DNA from: a virus
Lineage: Duplodnaviria > Heunggongvirae > Uroviricota > Caudoviricetes
Virus record (IMG/VR): IMGVR_UViG_2737471835_000007
Reading direction: 5' to 3' (one strand)
DNA: 47,347 nt
Positions within the stretch are counted from its first letter, which is position 1. Every line of letters starts with the position of its first letter. Positions 7,135 through 45,363 of the stretch are shown here, piece after piece. The notes beneath the pieces were generated by a model. That model searched no databases. It had not been told where the DNA came from and saw nothing but the letters and a program-made list of their open reading frames with translations. Position numbers and translations under genes: made by a program.

Positions 7135-7136
7135 AC

Positions 7137-8297
7137 TTATTCAACCTCTTCTAAACTGCTCACTCTGGACCCTCGGCGGAAATTATCATCATTTTTAACA
7201 TACTCGTATGAATCCAGAATCAAACCAGATATGCGAAGTATATCTTCCGGATTAGTTATATGTATCCTTTTACCATCCGTATCAAGTCGAGCTCGTCTTA
7301 TTTCATTCAACTGAACTTCACTAAGCGAAATAGGTAAAGTTATAAATGAAGATTTTTTATCATAAAATCTTAACAGCCATCTATTAGTTTTACCATTCAA
7401 TAGCACACCAAAATATGACTCAGTATCTTTATATTCTATATTATCTTCTGTTTGTATGATTTGTTTTACCCTTTCAAATAGCTCCAATTCTTTGGCTGTG
7501 GTTATTATGTTGGGGTTTTCTTCATCAACAATGGCGTTATTAACTTGTGTATCCGTTGCATCATTTTCTTTAGTTTGCTCTACCGGTTGTGTAGATAGCC
7601 CGGAAACCACCATTGCGCTAACAGCGCGCTCAACGGCCTGTTTAACTAATGGAGTCACGAACTCAAGAAATCTCTGATTAAGTTGTCTCTCAATATTTGA
7701 ACGACTAGCAACATATCGAACAAACTCCAGATCAACTTCACGAAGACTAGAACTGATTGTTTTAGTAAATGAATTCAAATAAACACTTTCTTCAGCCAGT
7801 GTCCGTAAAGCCTCTGGTTTGAATTTATCATAACGAAAACGAAATAATTGTGTAATATCGGAGTGAGTTAGAGAATCCATTCTTATTTTTAAAAACGGCG
7901 TTGAATCCATTATGTTTTTTTGTTTCAAATCCGTAAAAAAACGCCATTCAACACCATTTGTAATGGCTGATATAGTAACTTCCGGTGTTGAATTAAAATA
8001 TCTTGATAGCTGTGGGCAGTGATTATCAATTTGTTCTGAAAACGATTTCGCCTCAATGAACATCACAGGAACATCATGACAAAATAAAGCGTAATCAACC
8101 CGTTCATTAGCCTTAACCCCGGGGAAGTCAGCACTATACTCAGCTTTGACTTTTCTTGGATCATACGGAGTAAAACCAAGAATATCTAGTAATGGCATAA
8201 TGAGTGCTTGTTTTGTCGTTTCTTCAGTTGTACAAAACACCCCCATTTTTGCAACATGCTCTGTGTGTATTTTTAACTTATTTGCAAAATTTTCCAT
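7137..8297 (-). CDS. PD-(D/E)xK nuclease-domain protein (type I restriction enzyme HsdR N-terminal-like), moron in tail module
   Basis: 386 aa from MENFANK (GGAGGAG ribosome-binding site). N-terminal ...ERVDYALFCHDVPVMFIEAKS...NGVEWRFFTD matches the D...(D/E)xK core of HsdR-N-like nucleases; C-terminal ~200 aa unassigned. Locally AT-rich, with its own upstream region and terminator. Confidence 0.7.
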   Translation of the reverse strand: MENFANKLKIHTEHVAKMGVFCTTEETTKQALIMPLLDILGFTPYDPRKVKAEYSADFPGVKANERVDYALFCHDVPVMFIEAKSFSEQIDNHCPQLSRYFNSTPEVTISAITNGVEWRFFTDLKQKNIMDSTPFLKIRMDSLTHSDITQLFRFRYDKFKPEALRTLAEESVYLNSFTKTISSSLREVDLEFVRYVASRSNIERQLNQRFLEFVTPLVKQAVERAVSAMVVSGLSTQPVEQTKENDATDTQVNNAIVDEENPNIITTAKELELFERVKQIIQTEDNIEYKDTESYFGVLLNGKTNRWLLRFYDKKSSFITLPISLSEVQLNEIRRARLDTDGKRIHITNPEDILRISGLILDSYEYVKNDDNFRRGSRVSSLEEVE

Positions 8298-21589: not shown

Positions 21590-22403
21590 GTTTGCCCTTC
21601 TCCGTTAAAAATTCGTCGGGTAGTTTCTGAGGGGCGTAGATCGGCAGAGCATCGCAACTGCAATAAACCTCCTCCCCGGCAGCAGTGATTTCGTCATAAA
21701 AACCATATACGGGCTTAATAAGCCCCTGCTCCAGCGCCCACGAATCGCGGAGGAGATAAATTTTCTCGTCGCGCTCTTTGTGGTCCTGTCGGTATTTGTA
21801 GCCCGGACGCCGCCAGTTAGAATGCCAGCGCAGAGCAATCGCACCACTCTGAACAGCCAGCAGATACTTAACGTTGCTCGCCAGCTTATGTCCCTGGTCA
21901 ATTGCCACCCGGCGACTGATAAAATCCATATCCTTCACGGACTTCTGAAAACCGGACTTCACTTCCCGGCGATCAATTTCGCTCACCCCGTCAGGCGGAA
22001 TGGACGTAACCCATCCCTGAAAACGCTGTATGGTTTTCTCGATAGCCTGTTCGCGGTTGAGTTTTATCAGGTTGGCACTGGCGAAAATTCGCCTGTCGAG
22101 TTCCTTGCGAAACTCAGGTTTCAGTTTTTCAACAGTGATTTTTTTAGGGCCGTCAGGAGGCTGATCCCGTAATGCCCCGCCGTCGATGACAAGACGGCTG
22201 TAGATAGCGGTGAGATGTTTTCTGGCTACGGTATCATCAGGGGTTTCTCGCTGAGCGGCTACACGGAGTTTCCGGCACCATTCGAGCAATGATTTTTCGC
22301 TATCCCACCCGTGATTTACGTAGTAGTTAACGGCATCCGTCAGAACCTCATACAGCGTCCTGATCCGTTTCTTCTTCCTCCCCGCCCGGCTGGAAATTGC
22401 CAT
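21570..22403 (-). CDS. head morphogenesis / minor head protein
   Basis: ORF following portal; start set at MAISSRAG with AGGAG ribosome-binding site; overlaps portal 3' end. Confidence 0.5.
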   Translation of the reverse strand: MAISSRAGRKKKRIRTLYEVLTDAVNYYVNHGWDSEKSLLEWCRKLRVAAQRETPDDTVARKHLTAIYSRLVIDGGALRDQPPDGPKKITVEKLKPEFRKELDRRIFASANLIKLNREQAIEKTIQRFQGWVTSIPPDGVSEIDRREVKSGFQKSVKDMDFISRRVAIDQGHKLASNVKYLLAVQSGAIALRWHSNWRRPGYKYRQDHKERDEKIYLLRDSWALEQGLIKPVYGFYDEITAAGEEVYCSCDALPIYAPQKLPDEFLTEKGKREFNRA

Positions 22404-23787
22404 CAGGCGTCTCCTGCTTCGGTGGTTCATAATTCGCCAGGGCGTCCACATCAATGATGAGTGGAGCTTCGCCATAGGTCTGCGTGGCATTAACAAGGCT
22501 TGCCAGCCATTCAGTGACGGCGGCACGGTTTTCAGGATCAACCTGTAGCGACACGGCAGAGAAAAGTGCTATCGCCTGTTGAATCACTTTACTGTCGCTT
22601 TCCCGGCGTTTGTCCGGCGACTCCTCCACCAGCTCCTGCCACGTCGCGGTAAACTCGCGCCGCCACTGGTAAAACGTGGTTTTATAGTCCTCGGTTATGA
22701 TGTCCGGGTAATCATTTTTCAGCGACTGATAAAATTCCTCGTTCCAGGCGATGTACTGCACCAGGCGTTCGAAATAATCCATCACAGGTTCAATCTGCTG
22801 GCGTACACCATCGATATACTGGCTGATGGCTTTCGAGTCCTCGGTTCCTTCACCGAAACCATTCGAGAAAGCCTCCTCCTTGATGAGAATCGCGGGAACA
22901 TCGCTACCTGATGCAATATCGGAAATAATGTTGTCGCGGGCGGCATTTAGCGCGCCATCGATGTTTTGTAAATTCAGCGAGGTAACGTCCTCATCCTTCC
23001 CGATACTAAGCACACCTTTATTTTTTGCCTCTTTGACATTTTCCCTTTTTCGTCCCGTGGCGGCAGCCATGATCCCGTCAAGTTTCGAACCATACTGCAC
23101 AACTTTAGCCACCAGCACGCCAGCCTTCTGGCTGACGAGATCATTCGCCTCCATCGTATTGATATAGGATTTCAGGGAATAAAGAACGCGCTGAAACACG
23201 CTTCGCCCGGTGAATCCGAACGATGAACTCTGAAACTCCAGATAAATCGGTGTGCCATTGAAAATTTTCAGTGTGCGTGACGGATGCCAGTCTTTTCCGC
23301 CAATCTTCAGCTTTTTATTGGCTTCCTGGAAAAACGGGCTGTTTGGGTTCTGGTCAGTCACCATCGAACCAGAAGCGTTCAACGGGTCCCACGCGTTGAT
23401 ATACACATCATCTTCTGTCAGTCCGAATGTCGGAAGCGGCTCACGACATGGAACACTGTCGGTGCCCACGCCGATCGCTGCGGCACCGTAGCAACGAGAC
23501 AGAAAAAACAGATTTTTAATCTTCTCGTTAACCTTCATACGTTCCCATACCTCCTGGAAACGCCGCACAACCCGCTCGTCAGGGTCTGTCTCCACGTTGT
23601 ACTGACGCGGCTTACACATCGCCATAAGTATGGGTTTTTCGACAAGTTTTCCGCCCAGAGGATGGAATTGCCACAGCTGCTTACACAATTCATAGCCAAT
23701 GTCGGTTCCCGGCTGAATTTCTTCAGCCTCAAGAATATGCATCAGTGCTGAACCGAGGCCGCCAGTAATCTCGATCTCTGCCATCAA
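22348..23787 (-). CDS. portal protein
   Basis: 479 aa directly after terminase large subunit, acidic C-terminus. Confidence 0.75.
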   Translation of the reverse strand: MMAEIEITGGLGSALMHILEAEEIQPGTDIGYELCKQLWQFHPLGGKLVEKPILMAMCKPRQYNVETDPDERVVRRFQEVWERMKVNEKIKNLFFLSRCYGAAAIGVGTDSVPCREPLPTFGLTEDDVYINAWDPLNASGSMVTDQNPNSPFFQEANKKLKIGGKDWHPSRTLKIFNGTPIYLEFQSSSFGFTGRSVFQRVLYSLKSYINTMEANDLVSQKAGVLVAKVVQYGSKLDGIMAAATGRKRENVKEAKNKGVLSIGKDEDVTSLNLQNIDGALNAARDNIISDIASGSDVPAILIKEEAFSNGFGEGTEDSKAISQYIDGVRQQIEPVMDYFERLVQYIAWNEEFYQSLKNDYPDIITEDYKTTFYQWRREFTATWQELVEESPDKRRESDSKVIQQAIALFSAVSLQVDPENRAAVTEWLASLVNATQTYGEAPLIIDVDALANYEPPKQETPDGNFQPGGEEEETDQDAV

Positions 23788-32520: not shown

Positions 32521-32793
32521 TTCTCAATCTCTCGATGGCGCAGTGCAGCAGATGCCAGTTGTTCAGGCTGACGAATGAAGTATAAATAAACTGGCTCCAG
32601 TGTAAAGCCCCCACATTGATGGAATAAAAACCAAACAACAGATTGCTGGGATAAAAACAACGCTTATTATTAAAAGCGGTTAAACAAATTAAATTTTAAT
32701 GTTATGCAAATCTACCAGATCACCATAATATCTCATTTGAAAACCACTGAAATAACAACCCTATCAGGATTAATCATATTAAGGTGAGTAAAT

Positions 32794-32880
32794 ATGGAAA
32801 ACAACAAATCTGCACATTACGCTCCTTTTTTATCTGTAATACTTTTTGTTTTATGCTGTGCGTGGGCATTATTTTTATAA
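32794..32880 (+). CDS. small hydrophobic peptide (28 aa)
   Basis: AAGGTGAG ribosome-binding site 7 nt before ATG; MENNKSAHYAPFLSVILFVLCCAWALFL; convergent with hok. Confidence 0.35.
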   Translation: MENNKSAHYAPFLSVILFVLCCAWALFL

Positions 32881-32986
32881 AAATATTTACAGATAAAATA
32901 AACCCGCCAAAGCTGGTTAAGTGTGGGTGCGTTGAGGATGCATAATACATCAGAGGTGGCGAGGGATTTCTCCCTCGCCCGGTCTC

Positions 32987-33142
32987 TTACTCCTCAGGTT
33001 CGTAAGCTGTGAAGACAGCGACCTCCGTCTGCCCGGTTCGGATTCGTACCTCACAGAGGTCTTTCCTCGTTACCAGTGCCGTCACTATGACGGTTAAACA
33101 GATGACGATCAGGGCGATTAACATCGCCTTTTGCTGCTTCAT
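32987..33142 (-). CDS. hokD: Hok/Gef family type I toxin (HokD/RelF-like)
   Basis: 51 aa MKQQKAMLIALIVICLTVIVTALVTRKDLCEVRIRTGQTEVAVFTAYEPEE; short upstream mok-like ORF ending in CTATGA overlap. Confidence 0.85.
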   Translation of the reverse strand: MKQQKAMLIALIVICLTVIVTALVTRKDLCEVRIRTGQTEVAVFTAYEPEE

Positions 33143-33664: not shown

Positions 33665-34438
33665 ATGACATCCTTTCAATTATCTTTGATTTCTCGTGAA
33701 ATTGACGGCGAAATAATACATTTACGTGCCAAAGATGGTTACATAAACGCCACATCAATGTGTAGAACTGCGGGCAAACTGCTCTCTGATTACACTAGAC
33801 TCAAAACTACTCAAGAGTTTTTTGACGAATTATCACGCGATATGGGAATTCCCATATCGGAGTTAATTCAATCATTTAAAGGTGGAAGACCTGAAAACCA
33901 AGGGACATGGGTGCATCCTGACATCGCTATTAATCTAGCGCAGTGGCTATCGCCCAAATTTGCAGTCCAGGTTTCAAGATGGGTTCGTGAATGGATGTCA
34001 GGGGAAAGAACTACAGCAGAAATGCCTGTACATTTAAAACGGTACATGGTTAATCGTAGTAGAATTCCTCACACGCACTTTTCTATTCTTAATGAACTGA
34101 CATTCAACTTGGTTGCACCTCTTGAACAAGCAGGGTACACACTCCCAGAAAAAATGGTTCCTGACATTTCACAAGGAAGAGTATTTTCACAATGGTTAAG
34201 AGATAATAGAAACGTAGAACCCAAAACATTCCCTACCTATGACCATGAATATCCCGATGGTCGCGTATACCCTGCAAGGCTGTACCCAAATGAATATTTA
34301 GCAGATTTCAAAGAACATTTTAACAATATTTGGTTGCCGCAATATGCCCCGAAATACTTCGCTGACCGGGACAAAAAGGCTCTCGCCTTGATTGAAAAAA
34401 TTATGCTACCTAACCTCGATGGCAATGAACAGTTCTAA
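33665..34438 (+). CDS. KilA-N domain protein
   Basis: N-terminal ...LRAKDGYINATSMCRTAGKLLSDYTRLKTTQEFFDEL...WVHPDIAINLAQWLSPKFAVQVSRWV is a KilA-N/APSES-type domain. Confidence 0.8.
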   Translation: MTSFQLSLISREIDGEIIHLRAKDGYINATSMCRTAGKLLSDYTRLKTTQEFFDELSRDMGIPISELIQSFKGGRPENQGTWVHPDIAINLAQWLSPKFAVQVSRWVREWMSGERTTAEMPVHLKRYMVNRSRIPHTHFSILNELTFNLVAPLEQAGYTLPEKMVPDISQGRVFSQWLRDNRNVEPKTFPTYDHEYPDGRVYPARLYPNEYLADFKEHFNNIWLPQYAPKYFADRDKKALALIEKIMLPNLDGNEQF

Positions 34439-41784: not shown

Positions 41785-41885
41785 AAGAAATAGCCTGCGC
41801 CATACGCAGGCTATGAACAGTGTGTATCCGGCAAGATCATTCACTGAACAAAACGAATTTTAATCTGAGTTGAGGTTAAAAAACA

Positions 41886-44537
41886 ATGAGCACAAAACCA
41901 CTCTTCCTGTTACGGAAAGCGAAAAAATCATCCGGTGAACCTGACGTCGTCCTGTGGGCAAGCGACGATTTTGAATCGACCTGTGCCACTCTGGACTACC
42001 TGCTCGTTAAGTCAGGTAAAAAACTGAGCAGCTATTTTAAACCTGTTGCCACGAATTTTCCTGTCGTTAATGACCTTCCCCCTGAAGGTGAGATCGATTT
42101 TACCTGGAGTGAACGCTATCAACTCAGCAAAGACTCAATGACCTGGGAACTAAAACCGGGAGCAGCGCCAGACGACGTTCACCACCAGGATAATGCTCAA
42201 GAAACCAAAGAACTGGCGGGAGGCCAGGAAGAAAACGCGCAGGCAGACGCCCACGAGGATTGCCAGGATTGCGAAGTCTCTGTAGCCACTTTGCGGTTCA
42301 CACAGCGTCTTCTGCACATTTTTACGTATGCAGCCGGGGATCGGAAATACCTGCATCATGCCACCCGTGAACAACGCAAACACATTACTGCTCTTGAGAT
42401 GGATCAGGAAAACAGCTATGTCCAGAATCTGCTGTTGGCCATACGCAGCATGGCAGAACCGACAACTCTGGATAATGCCGCCCTGCTCCGCCTGACTGAT
42501 GCAATTAAGGCAGTGTTCTCTATCACGAAAAAACATCAGCCCTATGAATTTAAGAATTTCATTTCAGCCTGGCTGGATACCGAACACATTGATCGCGATC
42601 TTCTGACAAAAGAATGGCGAAAAGGAAATCGTGTTTCACGCATCACGCGCACGGCTTCCGGCGCTAATGCTGGCGGCGGGAACCTCACCGATCGCGGCGA
42701 AGGTTTCGTTCACGATCTGACGTCACTGGCGCGCGACGTAGCCACTGGCGTACTGGCTCGTTCAATGGACGTGGACATTTATAACCTTCATCCGGCACAC
42801 GCTAAACGTGTCGAGGAAATTATCGCTGAAAATAAACCACCCTTTTCTGTTTTCCGCGACAAATTCATCACCATGCCTGGTGGGCTGGATTATTCCCGCG
42901 CCATCGTGGTTGCGTCCGTAAAAGAAGCACCAATTGGGATCGAGGTCATCCCCGCACACGTCACTGAATATCTGAACAAAGTACTGACTGAAACCGATCA
43001 TGCCAACCCTGATCCGGAAATCGTGGATATTGCCTGCGGTCGCTCCTCGGCCCCGATGCCGCAGCGAGTAACAGAAGAAGGAAAACAGGACGATGAAGAA
43101 AAACCACAACCATCTGGCGCAATGGCAGATGAACAGGCAACGGCTGAAACAGTGGAACCGAATGCAACTGAACATCATCAGAACACGCAGCCGCTGGATG
43201 CTCAGTCACAGGTAAATTCTGTTGATGCGAAATATCAGGAACTGCGGGCAGAACTCCAGGAAGCCCGGAAAAACATTCCATCAAAAAATCCTGTCGATGC
43301 CGATAAATTGCTTGCTGCATCACGTGGTGAATTTGTTGACGGAATTAGCGACCCGAACGATCCGAAATGGGTTAAGGGGATCCAGACTCGCGATTCTGTG
43401 TACCAGAACCAGCCAGAAACGGAAAAAATCAGCCCGGATGCGAAACAACCTGAGCCAGTAGTGCAACAGGAACCGGAAATAGTCTGCAATGCCTGCGGTC
43501 AGACTGGCGGGGATAACTGCCCTGACTGTGGTGCGGTGATGGGCGACGCAACATACCAGGAAACATTCGGTGAAGAGAATCAGGTTGAAGCTAAGGAAAA
43601 AGATCCGGAGGAAATGGAAGGCGCTGAACATCCGCACAATGAGAATGCTGGCAGCGATCCGCATCGCGATTGCAGTGATGAAACTGGCGAAGTCGCAGAT
43701 CCCGTAATCGTAGAAGACATAGAGCCAGGTATTTATTACGGAATTTCGAATGAGAATTACCACGCGGGTCCCGGTGTCAGTAAGTCTCAGCTCGATGACA
43801 TTGCTGATACTCCGGCACTGTATTTGTGGCGTAAAAATGCCCCCGTGGACACTACAAAGACAAAAACGCTCGATTTAGGAACCGCTTTCCACTGCCGGGT
43901 ACTTGAACCGGAAGAATTCAGTAACCGCTTTATCGTAGCACCTGAATTTAACCGCCGTACAAACGCCGGAAAAGAAGAAGAGAAAGCGTTTCTGATGGAA
44001 TGCGCAAGCACAGGAAAAACGGTTATCACTGCGGAAGAAGGCCGGAAAATTGAACTCATGTATCAAAGCGTTATGGCTTTGCCGCTGGGGCAATGGCTTG
44101 TTGAAAGCGCCGGACACGCTGAATCATCAATTTACTGGGAAGATCCGGAAACAGGAATTTTGTGTCGGTGCCGTCCGGACAAAATTATTCCTGAATTTCA
44201 CTGGATCATGGACGTGAAAACCACAGCGGATATTCAACGATTCAAAACGGCTTATTACGACTACCGCTATCACGTTCAGGATGCATTCTACAGTGACGGT
44301 TATGAAGCACAGTTTGGTGTGCAGCCAACTTTCGTTTTTCTGGTTGCCAGCACAACTGTTGAATGCGGACGTTATCCGGTTGAGATTTTCATGATGGGCG
44401 AAGAAGCAAAACTGGCAGGCCAGCAGGAATATCACCGCAATCTGCGGACCCTGGCTGACTGCCTAAATACCGATGAATGGCCAGCTATTAAGACGTTATC
44501 ACTGCCCCGCTGGGCTAAGGAGTATGCAAATGACTAA
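41886..44537 (+). CDS. recE: exonuclease VIII RecE
   Basis: 883 aa; C-terminal PD-(D/E)xK exonuclease-type region; 8-nt overlap with recT start, the canonical recET arrangement. Confidence 0.85.
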
Positions 44538-45363
44538 GCAACCACCTATCGCAAAAGCCGATCTGCAAAAAACTCAGGGAAACCGTGCACCAGCAGCAGT
44601 TAACGATAAGGATGTGCTGTGCGTGATTAACAGCCCGGCAATGAAAGCGCAACTGGCAGCAGCTCTGCCACGTCACATGACAGCGGAACGCATGATCCGC
44701 ATTGCTACAACAGAAATCCGTAAAGTACCGGAACTAAGAAACTGTGACTCGACGAGTTTTATCGGTGCCATCGTACAGTGTTCACAGCTCGGACTTGAGC
44801 CAGGTAGCGCCCTCGGTCATGCATATCTGCTACCGTTCGGCAACGGAAAAGCAAAAAACGGTAAGAAGAACGTACAGCTGATCATCGGTTATCGCGGCAT
44901 GATCGACCTTGCCCGTCGATCAGGTCAAATCATCAGTCTGTCAGCTCGTGTTGTCCGTGAATGTGATGAATTCAGCTATGAACTTGGCCTTGATGAAAAA
45001 CTGGTTCATCGTCCCGGTGAAAACGAAGATGCCCCTATAACCCATGTCTATGCTGTTGCAAAACTGAAAGACGGAGGAGTGCAGTTTGAAGTCATGACCC
45101 GCAAACAGGTAGAAAAAGTTCGCGACACACACAGCAAGGCGGCAAAAAACGCAGCGTCAAAAGGGGCGTCGTCCATCTGGGATGAACACTTTGAAGACAT
45201 GGCCAAAAAGACAGTGATACGAAAACTGTTCAAGTATCTGCCGGTATCTATTGAAATCCAGCGTGCAGTATCGATGGATGGAAAAGAGGTGGAAACAATT
45301 AATCCAGACGACATATCGGTTATAGCCGGGGAATACAGTGTAATCGATAATCCAGAAGAATAA
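44530..45363 (+). CDS. recT: recombinase RecT
   Basis: Start [13 protein letters not shown]; RecT-family motifs ...[15 protein letters not shown]...[15 protein letters not shown]... Confidence 0.9.

Follow-up and report, generated by a model that had tools for sequence, protein, structure and literature searches.

A conserved 28-codon reading frame on an AT-rich cassette of Escherichia prophages: a probable small membrane protein gene missing from annotations

INTRODUCTION

Both prophages and chromosomes are well known to encode small single-helix peptides. Among them are type I toxins such as ShoB, TisB, ZorO, and DinQ, which are small hydrophobic peptides; in the ShoB/OhsC, ZorO/OrzO, and TisB/IstR-1 pairs, the antitoxin sRNA acts on the 5' untranslated region (UTR). 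Other single-helix peptides of fewer than 50 aa (i.e., MgtS, PmrR, AcrZ, and YohP, as well as DicB and YdfD of the Qin prophage) bind larger membrane proteins. Prophages also carry morons, of which bor and lom of lambda and gp15 of HK97 are known examples.

Here, we describe a 28-codon open reading frame (ORF) in a 47,347-nt sequence of a tailed virus (IMG/VR record IMGVR_UViG_2737471835_000007). This whole stretch is referred to below as the window, and all positions and strands are those of the window. The locus resembles ShoB/OhsC, ZorO/OrzO, and TisB/IstR-1 in the size and form of its peptide (26 to 29 residues, mostly one hydrophobic helix), in a long predicted 5' UTR, and in a possible opposite-strand RNA over or near that UTR, for which there is a candidate here. 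Moreover, the peptide and ShoB both end in ...LLFL. However, it shares neither sequence similarity nor a family match with ShoB, ZorO, or TisB, its Shine-Dalgarno (SD) sequence is not masked above chance level, and it lies on a prophage cassette rather than at a fixed chromosomal locus. As with Hok/Sok, the gene would be a prophage-borne gene for a small membrane peptide, located in the same cargo region; Hok, in contrast, has approximately 50 aa and an RNA architecture (mok/sok/fbi) recognized by Rfam, which the ORF cassette does not contain.

Like phage morons, the cassette is a discrete insert of deviant composition between conserved phage genes, is present in some relatives and absent from others, and carries a gene oriented against the flanking phage operon. 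It differs from them in being much smaller and in its outward-facing promoter-like site, in addition to a putative promoter and terminator of its own. A conserved face of the predicted helix is compatible with the binding of a partner, as in the small inner-membrane regulators, although there is no homology to these regulators. The family appears to be new, and the kind does not.

RESULTS

The ORF, its peptide, and its absence from annotations

The following features define the ORF and its immediate start region.

32794..32880, plus strand: 28-codon ORF followed by TAA (ATG, 32794-32796; stop, 32878-32880)
32781..32788, plus strand: SD sequence AAGGTGAG, 5 nt before the ATG, as read from the sequence

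The ORF translates (28 sense codons) into MENNKSAHYAPFLSVILFVLCCAWALFL, and the window sequence contains no upstream in-frame start for it. Residues 1 to 10 of the peptide are polar (MENNxxAH), while residues from approximately P11 to L28 form a C-terminal hydrophobic helix. Given that residues 11 to 28 are all hydrophobic, the peptide has the form expected of a type I toxin (i.e., fewer than 60 aa with a single transmembrane helix). An earlier note, made from this sequence without database searches, had described a 28-aa hydrophobic ORF at this position, in AT-rich surroundings and convergent with hok. The coordinates proved to be exact, the GC content over 32625-32924 is 29 to 31% compared with approximately 50% in the flanks, and hokD is encoded on the minus strand downstream. 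The ribosome-binding site had been called strong. Its core, AGGTGA, ends 6 nt before the ATG and can pair over all six nucleotides with the 16S rRNA 3' end, and TAAGGTG is kept in both deep clades of the locus (clades A and B; see below). The description thus holds for most alleles and fails for one large subclade, in which the site is weakened to TAAAGTGAG, or, in four loci, to TAAAGCGAG.

On the basis of base composition, 28 open codons after a given ATG have a roughly 10% chance of occurring at 30% GC. The window sequence by itself is insufficient to exclude a chance ORF, which the comparison of related sequences presented below does exclude. Two ORFs of 53 and 58 aa in other frames overlap the 28-codon ORF and are longer. 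Neither was retained as a gene: both extend past the cassette boundary, and neither is conserved from one context to another.

The 281 bp around the ORF were found in 1,188 of 5,426 complete Escherichia coli genomes (approximately 22%), mostly at one copy per genome. The identity of these copies to the window fell into bands (≥99%, 95 to 99%, 90 to 95%, and approximately 74%). Among the species representatives searched, Escherichia ruysiae and Shigella flexneri also contained the ORF, and it was further detected in four induced E. coli phages and in many IMG/VR prophage contigs. No homologue was found beyond Escherichia and Shigella among the species representatives, phages, and plasmids; tblastn against phages and plasmids returned E. 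coli copies only.

The earlier description of the ORF as unassigned was borne out. None of the RefSeq E. coli genome records containing the locus has an annotation at the ORF position, and no family for the peptide was detected in Pfam, NCBIfam, PHROGs, or PADLOC. With an E value threshold of ≤10, Pfam and NCBIfam yielded only chance-level, signal-peptide-like matches, such that the mismatch to known type I toxins, which the note had stated, also stands for the families in these two databases. Rfam detected no family within the cassette, and an exact look-up of six alleles in a collection of 15 billion proteins gave no match. Peptide strings gave no match in the searchable full-text literature, and the peptide was not found in the accessible parts of the supplements of the Sakai sORF paper and the Enterobacteriaceae smORF paper. 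Our literature searches on IteS (a neighbor of some copies; see below) and on hotspots returned nothing relevant. In K-12, there is no orthologue in Qin; ylcH of DLP12 was considered as a K-12 counterpart and rejected as a different kind of gene that is co-oriented with ybcN. Because the cassette is absent from K-12, the ORF is invisible to small-protein surveys of that strain. Including its stop, the ORF is 87 bp long, just under the 90-bp minimum gene length of common gene callers, which would explain its blanket omission from annotations. We think that the gene has been systematically missed because of this length.

Prophage setting and cassette boundaries

In E. coli strain A17, a Rac-type prophage carrying intR, xisR, ralR, recT, kilR, racR, and ydaS/ydaT is 100% identical to the window over the 721-bp region searched. 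E. coli 042 also carries the cassette, with its match at 1547140-1547861 of NC_017626.1. The cassette is hosted by Escherichia and Shigella prophages of the Rac and lambdoid types. In the window, the early and late phage genes are on the minus strand, in the order replication genes, hokD, DUF1367-DUF1364-DUF1133, and then holins and an M15 peptidase (presumably the endolysin), while the ORF is on the opposite strand. Because DUF1133 precedes the lysis genes, we read it as a putative Q-type antiterminator. The boundaries of the cassette and its right-hand side involve the following features.

32570..32898, no strand assigned: AT-rich cassette of 329 bp carrying the ORF and its upstream region, present or absent as a unit
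32828..32898, plus strand: inverted repeat with 20-nt arms (85% complementary), in which ORF codons 12 to 18 pair with the 3' UTR
32900..32920, no strand assigned: hairpin AACCCGCCAAAGCTGGTT at the 3' end of the hok module, with a T-run on the minus strand, abutting the cassette
32987..33142, minus strand: hokD, the convergent neighbor outside the cassette (ORF list and RefSeq)

In an O157:H7 prophage that shares the DUF1367 operon, the homology to the window extends up to 32569 and is followed by a 37-nt spacer and then a hok-type hairpin; this prophage therefore lacks precisely 32570-32898. In Qin of K-12, which lacks the cassette, the hok module is homologous from 32900 onward. These two junctions place the ORF on a 329-bp, AT-rich, moron-like presence/absence cassette. 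As in morons, the insert is discrete and lies between conserved genes that occur without it in the O157:H7 prophage and Qin, and its composition is deviant (29 to 35% GC versus approximately 50% in the flanks).

The hok/sok leader of hokD matches Rfam RF01794 (33140-33310; E = 1.9e-23). We read hairpin AACCCGCCAAAGCTGGTT as the terminator of the hok mRNA because of the T-run on the minus strand. On its own terminator side, the ORF would either borrow this hok hairpin or, in the IteS context, use a strong hairpin that follows it. The inverted repeat at 32828..32898 is found only where hok is the right-hand neighbor and is absent with other downstream DNA.

The left-hand operons of the cassette are of two kinds, i.e., DUF1367 (87 loci) and a 92-aa gene with DUF968 (41 loci). 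The right-hand neighbor varies, with hok in 76 loci and DUF1971 in 41 loci, and clade B always occurs with DUF1971 (41 of 41 loci). Other right-hand cargo (varied cargo was seen in loci L005, L064, L118, L042, L047, and L002 to L004) includes the S8 "anti-phage peptidase" IteS, a 752-aa protein that we read as NTPase-like, a pair of genes encoding 398 and 177 aa, and IS elements. The cassette is thus separable from hok, being found also beside DUF1971, IteS, and other cargo. From these comparisons, the position downstream of the ORF appears to behave as a cargo and defense hotspot, the edge of which is marked by the cassette.

In locus L118, an IS2 copy (InsC and InsD; positions 1520 to 2793 of that locus) lies approximately 160 nt upstream of the ORF ATG. 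This copy stands between the ORF and the DUF1367 operon, and the conserved upstream block, the UTR, and the ORF are all intact. The left flank of L118 was considered as a new module junction and is explained by this insertion. A KilA-N gene located two genes rightward of the ORF in the window (33665-34438, plus strand) was assigned by PADLOC to the BstA abortive-infection family (PDLC02356; E = 3.2e-21); its product is named merely "KilA-N domain-containing protein" in RefSeq. This gene shares its strand with the small ORF and is likewise opposed to the phage operons.

Constraint on the reading frame

Exactly 28 codons were present in all 130 loci that were selected by peptide (10 variants). 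Since such a sample is biased toward intact copies, a second sample was drawn with a DNA pattern from the conserved upstream block. Among the 120 loci anchored on this upstream DNA, all 118 that were evaluable contained an intact 28-codon ORF, with at least 14 peptide variants. The start and stop codons were invariant in every evaluable locus, and none of the loci compared had an indel changing the frame or the stop, whereas the flanks contained several indels. The earlier note had looked to frame conservation and dN/dS across related prophages, and had regarded a frame that decays in homologous regions, combined with a missing translation signal, as evidence against the ORF; no such decay was seen in the evaluable DNA-anchored loci, and the dN/dS values given below are low.

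Much of this apparent conservation comes from closely related prophages, and there are two deep clades only (A and B), between which the DNA of the module is approximately 74% identical. On a tree of 53 haplotypes, parsimony assigned 0.18, 0.29, and 0.64 changes per site to codon positions 1, 2, and 3, respectively, and 0.74 to 0.96 changes per site to the 5' UTR. Position 3 took 18 of the 31 changes in the ORF (P = 0.004). Between clades A and B, dN was 0.11 to 0.20 and dS was 0.39 to 0.86 (NG86), resulting in dN/dS ratios of 0.16 to 0.42; the divergence of the 5' UTR between these clades was 0.40 (JC corrected), with many gaps. Two types within clade A differed at 2 of 84 ORF sites versus 18% of the UTR. 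The homology between clades A and B stops directly after the stop codon. In a tree-based neutral simulation, the synonymous excess (P = 0.12) and the lack of stops (P = 0.17) were jointly significant at a P value of 0.026. This simulation supports coding only modestly and is weaker than the simpler tests.

The variable positions of the peptide (15, 19, 20, 22, 23, and 26) occupy a single face of the helix (R = 0.63; exact P = 0.029), and replacements in the hydrophobic segment remain hydrophobic or small. Such a one-face pattern would arise if the side facing the lipid lay opposite a conserved packing side, and would not arise from constraint at the DNA or RNA level. Weighing frame integrity, codon periodicity, dN/dS, the helix-face pattern, and the end of the homology as a whole, we consider it quite likely, from these sequence comparisons, that the ORF is a translated gene. 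The suggestion in the earlier note of an ORF encoding a peptide with a single predicted transmembrane helix thus gained support as a real gene from the codon periodicity, the dN/dS ratios, the intact loci, and the helix-face pattern. At the level of sequence comparison, the ORF is conserved with the constraint acting on the protein, the cassette is discrete, and its right-hand neighbors are variable.

Candidate expression signals in the upstream region

Upstream of the ORF, the cassette contains the following candidate signals.

32681..32708, plus strand: candidate ORF promoter TAAACA-16 nt-TGtTATGCA (extended -10 type), predicted from the sequence
32579..32606, minus strand: promoter-like site TTTACA-16-TATACT (sigma-70-like; 10 of 12 consensus matches)
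32612-32631 and 32639-32658, no strand assigned: two 20-nt direct repeats, CACATTGATGGAATAAAAAC and CAGATTGCTGGGATAAAAAC (85% identical, 27 nt apart)

The candidate ORF promoter is within the most conserved noncoding block (32663-32709), which has 0.48 changes per site compared with 0.74 to 0.96 in the 5' UTR, and TTTTAATGTTATG is invariant across 12 representative haplotypes. The predicted 5' UTR is approximately 80 nt long, and the plus-strand 5' end would be expected near 32714. A consensus scan of the cassette called no plus-strand promoter for the ORF; the scan misses the candidate because its -10 hexamer is without the final T. An inverted repeat, ATGTTATG ... CATAAYAT (32699-32731), overlaps the candidate -10. 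This repeat is conserved in both deep clades, with a perfect 8-bp stem in clade B, and may serve as an operator or form a 5' hairpin. A 27-codon ORF, MQIYQITIISHLKTTEITTLSGLIILR (32704-32787, plus strand), also occupies the predicted 5' UTR, and its stop falls within the SD of the 28-codon ORF. Having only 11 codons in clade B, it is probably no gene.

The TTTACA-16-TATACT site faces out of the cassette and into the DUF1367-DUF1364-DUF1133 operon. The block around it is well conserved (0.36 changes per site), and the site is absent from prophages without the cassette. If it is active, carriers of the cassette would gain an additional route to late-regulator expression. The direct repeats stand between the two promoter-like sites, with a related pair in the divergent clade B, and could be a protein-binding site.

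Alternative explanations

Two further elements bear on whether the locus is a type I toxin-antitoxin module.

32773..32800, minus strand: candidate antisense promoter TTTCCA-16-TATGAT over the start codon (9 of 12 consensus matches)
32651..32678, minus strand: weak hairpin CGCTT/AAGCG with a T-run, possibly the 3' end of an antisense RNA (sequence scan)

The ORF might encode the membrane-depolarizing toxin of a new type I module, in which an antisense RNA of approximately 110 nt, beginning at the minus-strand promoter that overlaps the ORF start codon, pairs with the 5' UTR. Such an RNA would run from about 32766 to 32652. The small and hydrophobic peptide is in the size class of ShoB, TisB, ZorO, and DinQ, its predicted 5' UTR is long (approximately 80 nt) and diverges rapidly while the ORF is kept, and its neighbors are hok/sok and the BstA-like gene. 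In addition, TTTCCA-16-TATGAT would yield an RNA complementary to the 5' UTR, and the clade B substitutions in the CGCTT/AAGCG hairpin keep the pairing (by G-U or double change) on the minus strand only. However, a stem of only 5 bp makes a poor terminator, and the antisense -10 reads TATGAT, CATAAT, or TATTCT in clade A and is poor in clade B. The number of promoter-like sites in the region also does not exceed that in shuffles (three found, 2.1 ± 1.6 expected). The translationally inert mRNA of a type I toxin, with its SD and start sequestered by structure, was not recovered here: in five haplotypes, the unpaired probabilities of the SD and AUG were not below those of 150 dinucleotide-shuffled UTRs. 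The consensus RNA structure was weak on both strands (about -6 kcal/mol), the fold of the antisense RNA was not significant (z = -1.4), and an mRNA fold z-score of -2.1 was discarded as a signal because it came mostly from the hok-context-specific hairpin. Searches against Pfam and NCBIfam, as well as PADLOC, gave no match to a type I toxin family, and those against Rfam gave no antitoxin in the cassette. There is no direct repeat giving partial complementarity to a divergent trans-acting sRNA, and the locus is usually present as a single copy per genome. Given this balance, we regard a type I module as unlikely. Of the earlier proposal that the ORF may encode a small membrane toxin or regulator, the specifics of a type I toxin are thus not supported.

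We consider it more improbable still that the ORF is untranslated and that the conserved DNA is regulatory, i.e., a promoter/operator or a noncoding transcript opposing the phage early operon and controlling DUF1367-DUF1364-DUF1133, with the frame persisting by accident. An ORF of 28 codons is expected by chance in DNA of 30% GC (our own estimate), the promoter-like sites, the direct repeats, and the inverted repeat ATGTTATG/CATAAYAT are as conserved as the ORF, and the tree-based tests are only modestly significant. Five patterns contradict this explanation, being unexpected of an element that functions purely as DNA or RNA: the third-position excess (P = 0.004), the dN/dS ratios of 0.16 to 0.42, the helical-face pattern of the variable residues, the start and stop that are invariant in all evaluable loci, and the clade homology that ends right at the stop codon. 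A leader peptide involved in attenuation, or a signal peptide left over from a lipoprotein or spanin-like gene that was truncated, is very improbable. The hints in this direction are a weak match to Rfam Phe_leader (22 bits, against a cut-off of 55 bits), weak matches to the signal regions of lipoproteins and Rz-like spanins (E = 0.009 to 0.08), and one allele with the lipobox-like LFAGC. A lipobox has the form [LVI][ASTVI][GAS]C. In most alleles, the -1 position is occupied by L, F, or C (FVLC, FVFC, and FACC), which this rule disallows, and the rare LFAGC allele alone fits, loosely. Moreover, there is no downstream gene on the same strand, the next gene being either the convergent hok or unrelated cargo approximately 420 to 500 nt away; the length and stop are fixed across contexts; and the constraint extends over the entire peptide. 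The lipoprotein or leader-peptide reading was rejected on the lipobox and on the missing co-oriented downstream gene.

Proposed nature and role of the peptide

We consider a genuine and so far unannotated protein-coding gene, encoding a small inner-membrane protein on a prophage moron, to be the probable explanation of the sequence patterns. Such a gene would yield a 28-residue peptide with a short polar N terminus and one C-terminal transmembrane helix, and it would travel on a self-contained 329-bp cassette that has the leader of the DUF1367-DUF1364-DUF1133 operon on one side and the hok terminator, or other cargo, on the other. Since the gene is opposed to phage early and late transcription, expression from its own promoter in the lysogen would be possible, after which the peptide would be predicted to insert into the inner membrane. 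The conserved helix face, which comprises F12, L13, S14, I16, L17, F18, C21, W24, and A25, might then act by self-association or by binding a membrane protein of the host or phage, and the peptide may serve as a prophage accessory factor in exclusion, defense, or membrane modulation. By analogy with known small membrane proteins, the conserved face and the polar N terminus point to a specific interaction, either self-association or contact with a membrane partner. Judging from its location, the gene may act in exclusion, defense, or lysis control. A new family composed of a self-contained prophage toxin with a cis-antisense RNA, or a one-peptide exclusion or abortive-infection factor, is conceivable, and we hold it to be doubtful.

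If the ORF is translated, a widespread E. coli prophage gene would be missing from all the annotations and family databases checked, providing a concrete case of length cut-offs hiding small membrane proteins. The gene is widely distributed and, so far, mechanistically unsurprising. Its site at the edge of the cargo and defense region, directly before the operon of a putative late regulator, makes it a reasonable candidate for exclusion, lysogen fitness, or lysis control. With an ORF of 87 bp, natural allelic variants, and prophages that naturally lack the cassette, the locus offers a cheap test system.

Other features of the window

As a whole, the window represents a Rac-type prophage whose structural genes are myovirus-like. 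Its recE (approximately 41884-44955) is a pseudogene with an internal stop in RefSeq. A gene annotated as a "type I restriction endonuclease" is found among the baseplate genes (approximately 7136-8296), and the gene directly following the terminase genes, where the portal gene would be expected (approximately 22346-23782), is annotated as "anti-CBASS Acb1 family."
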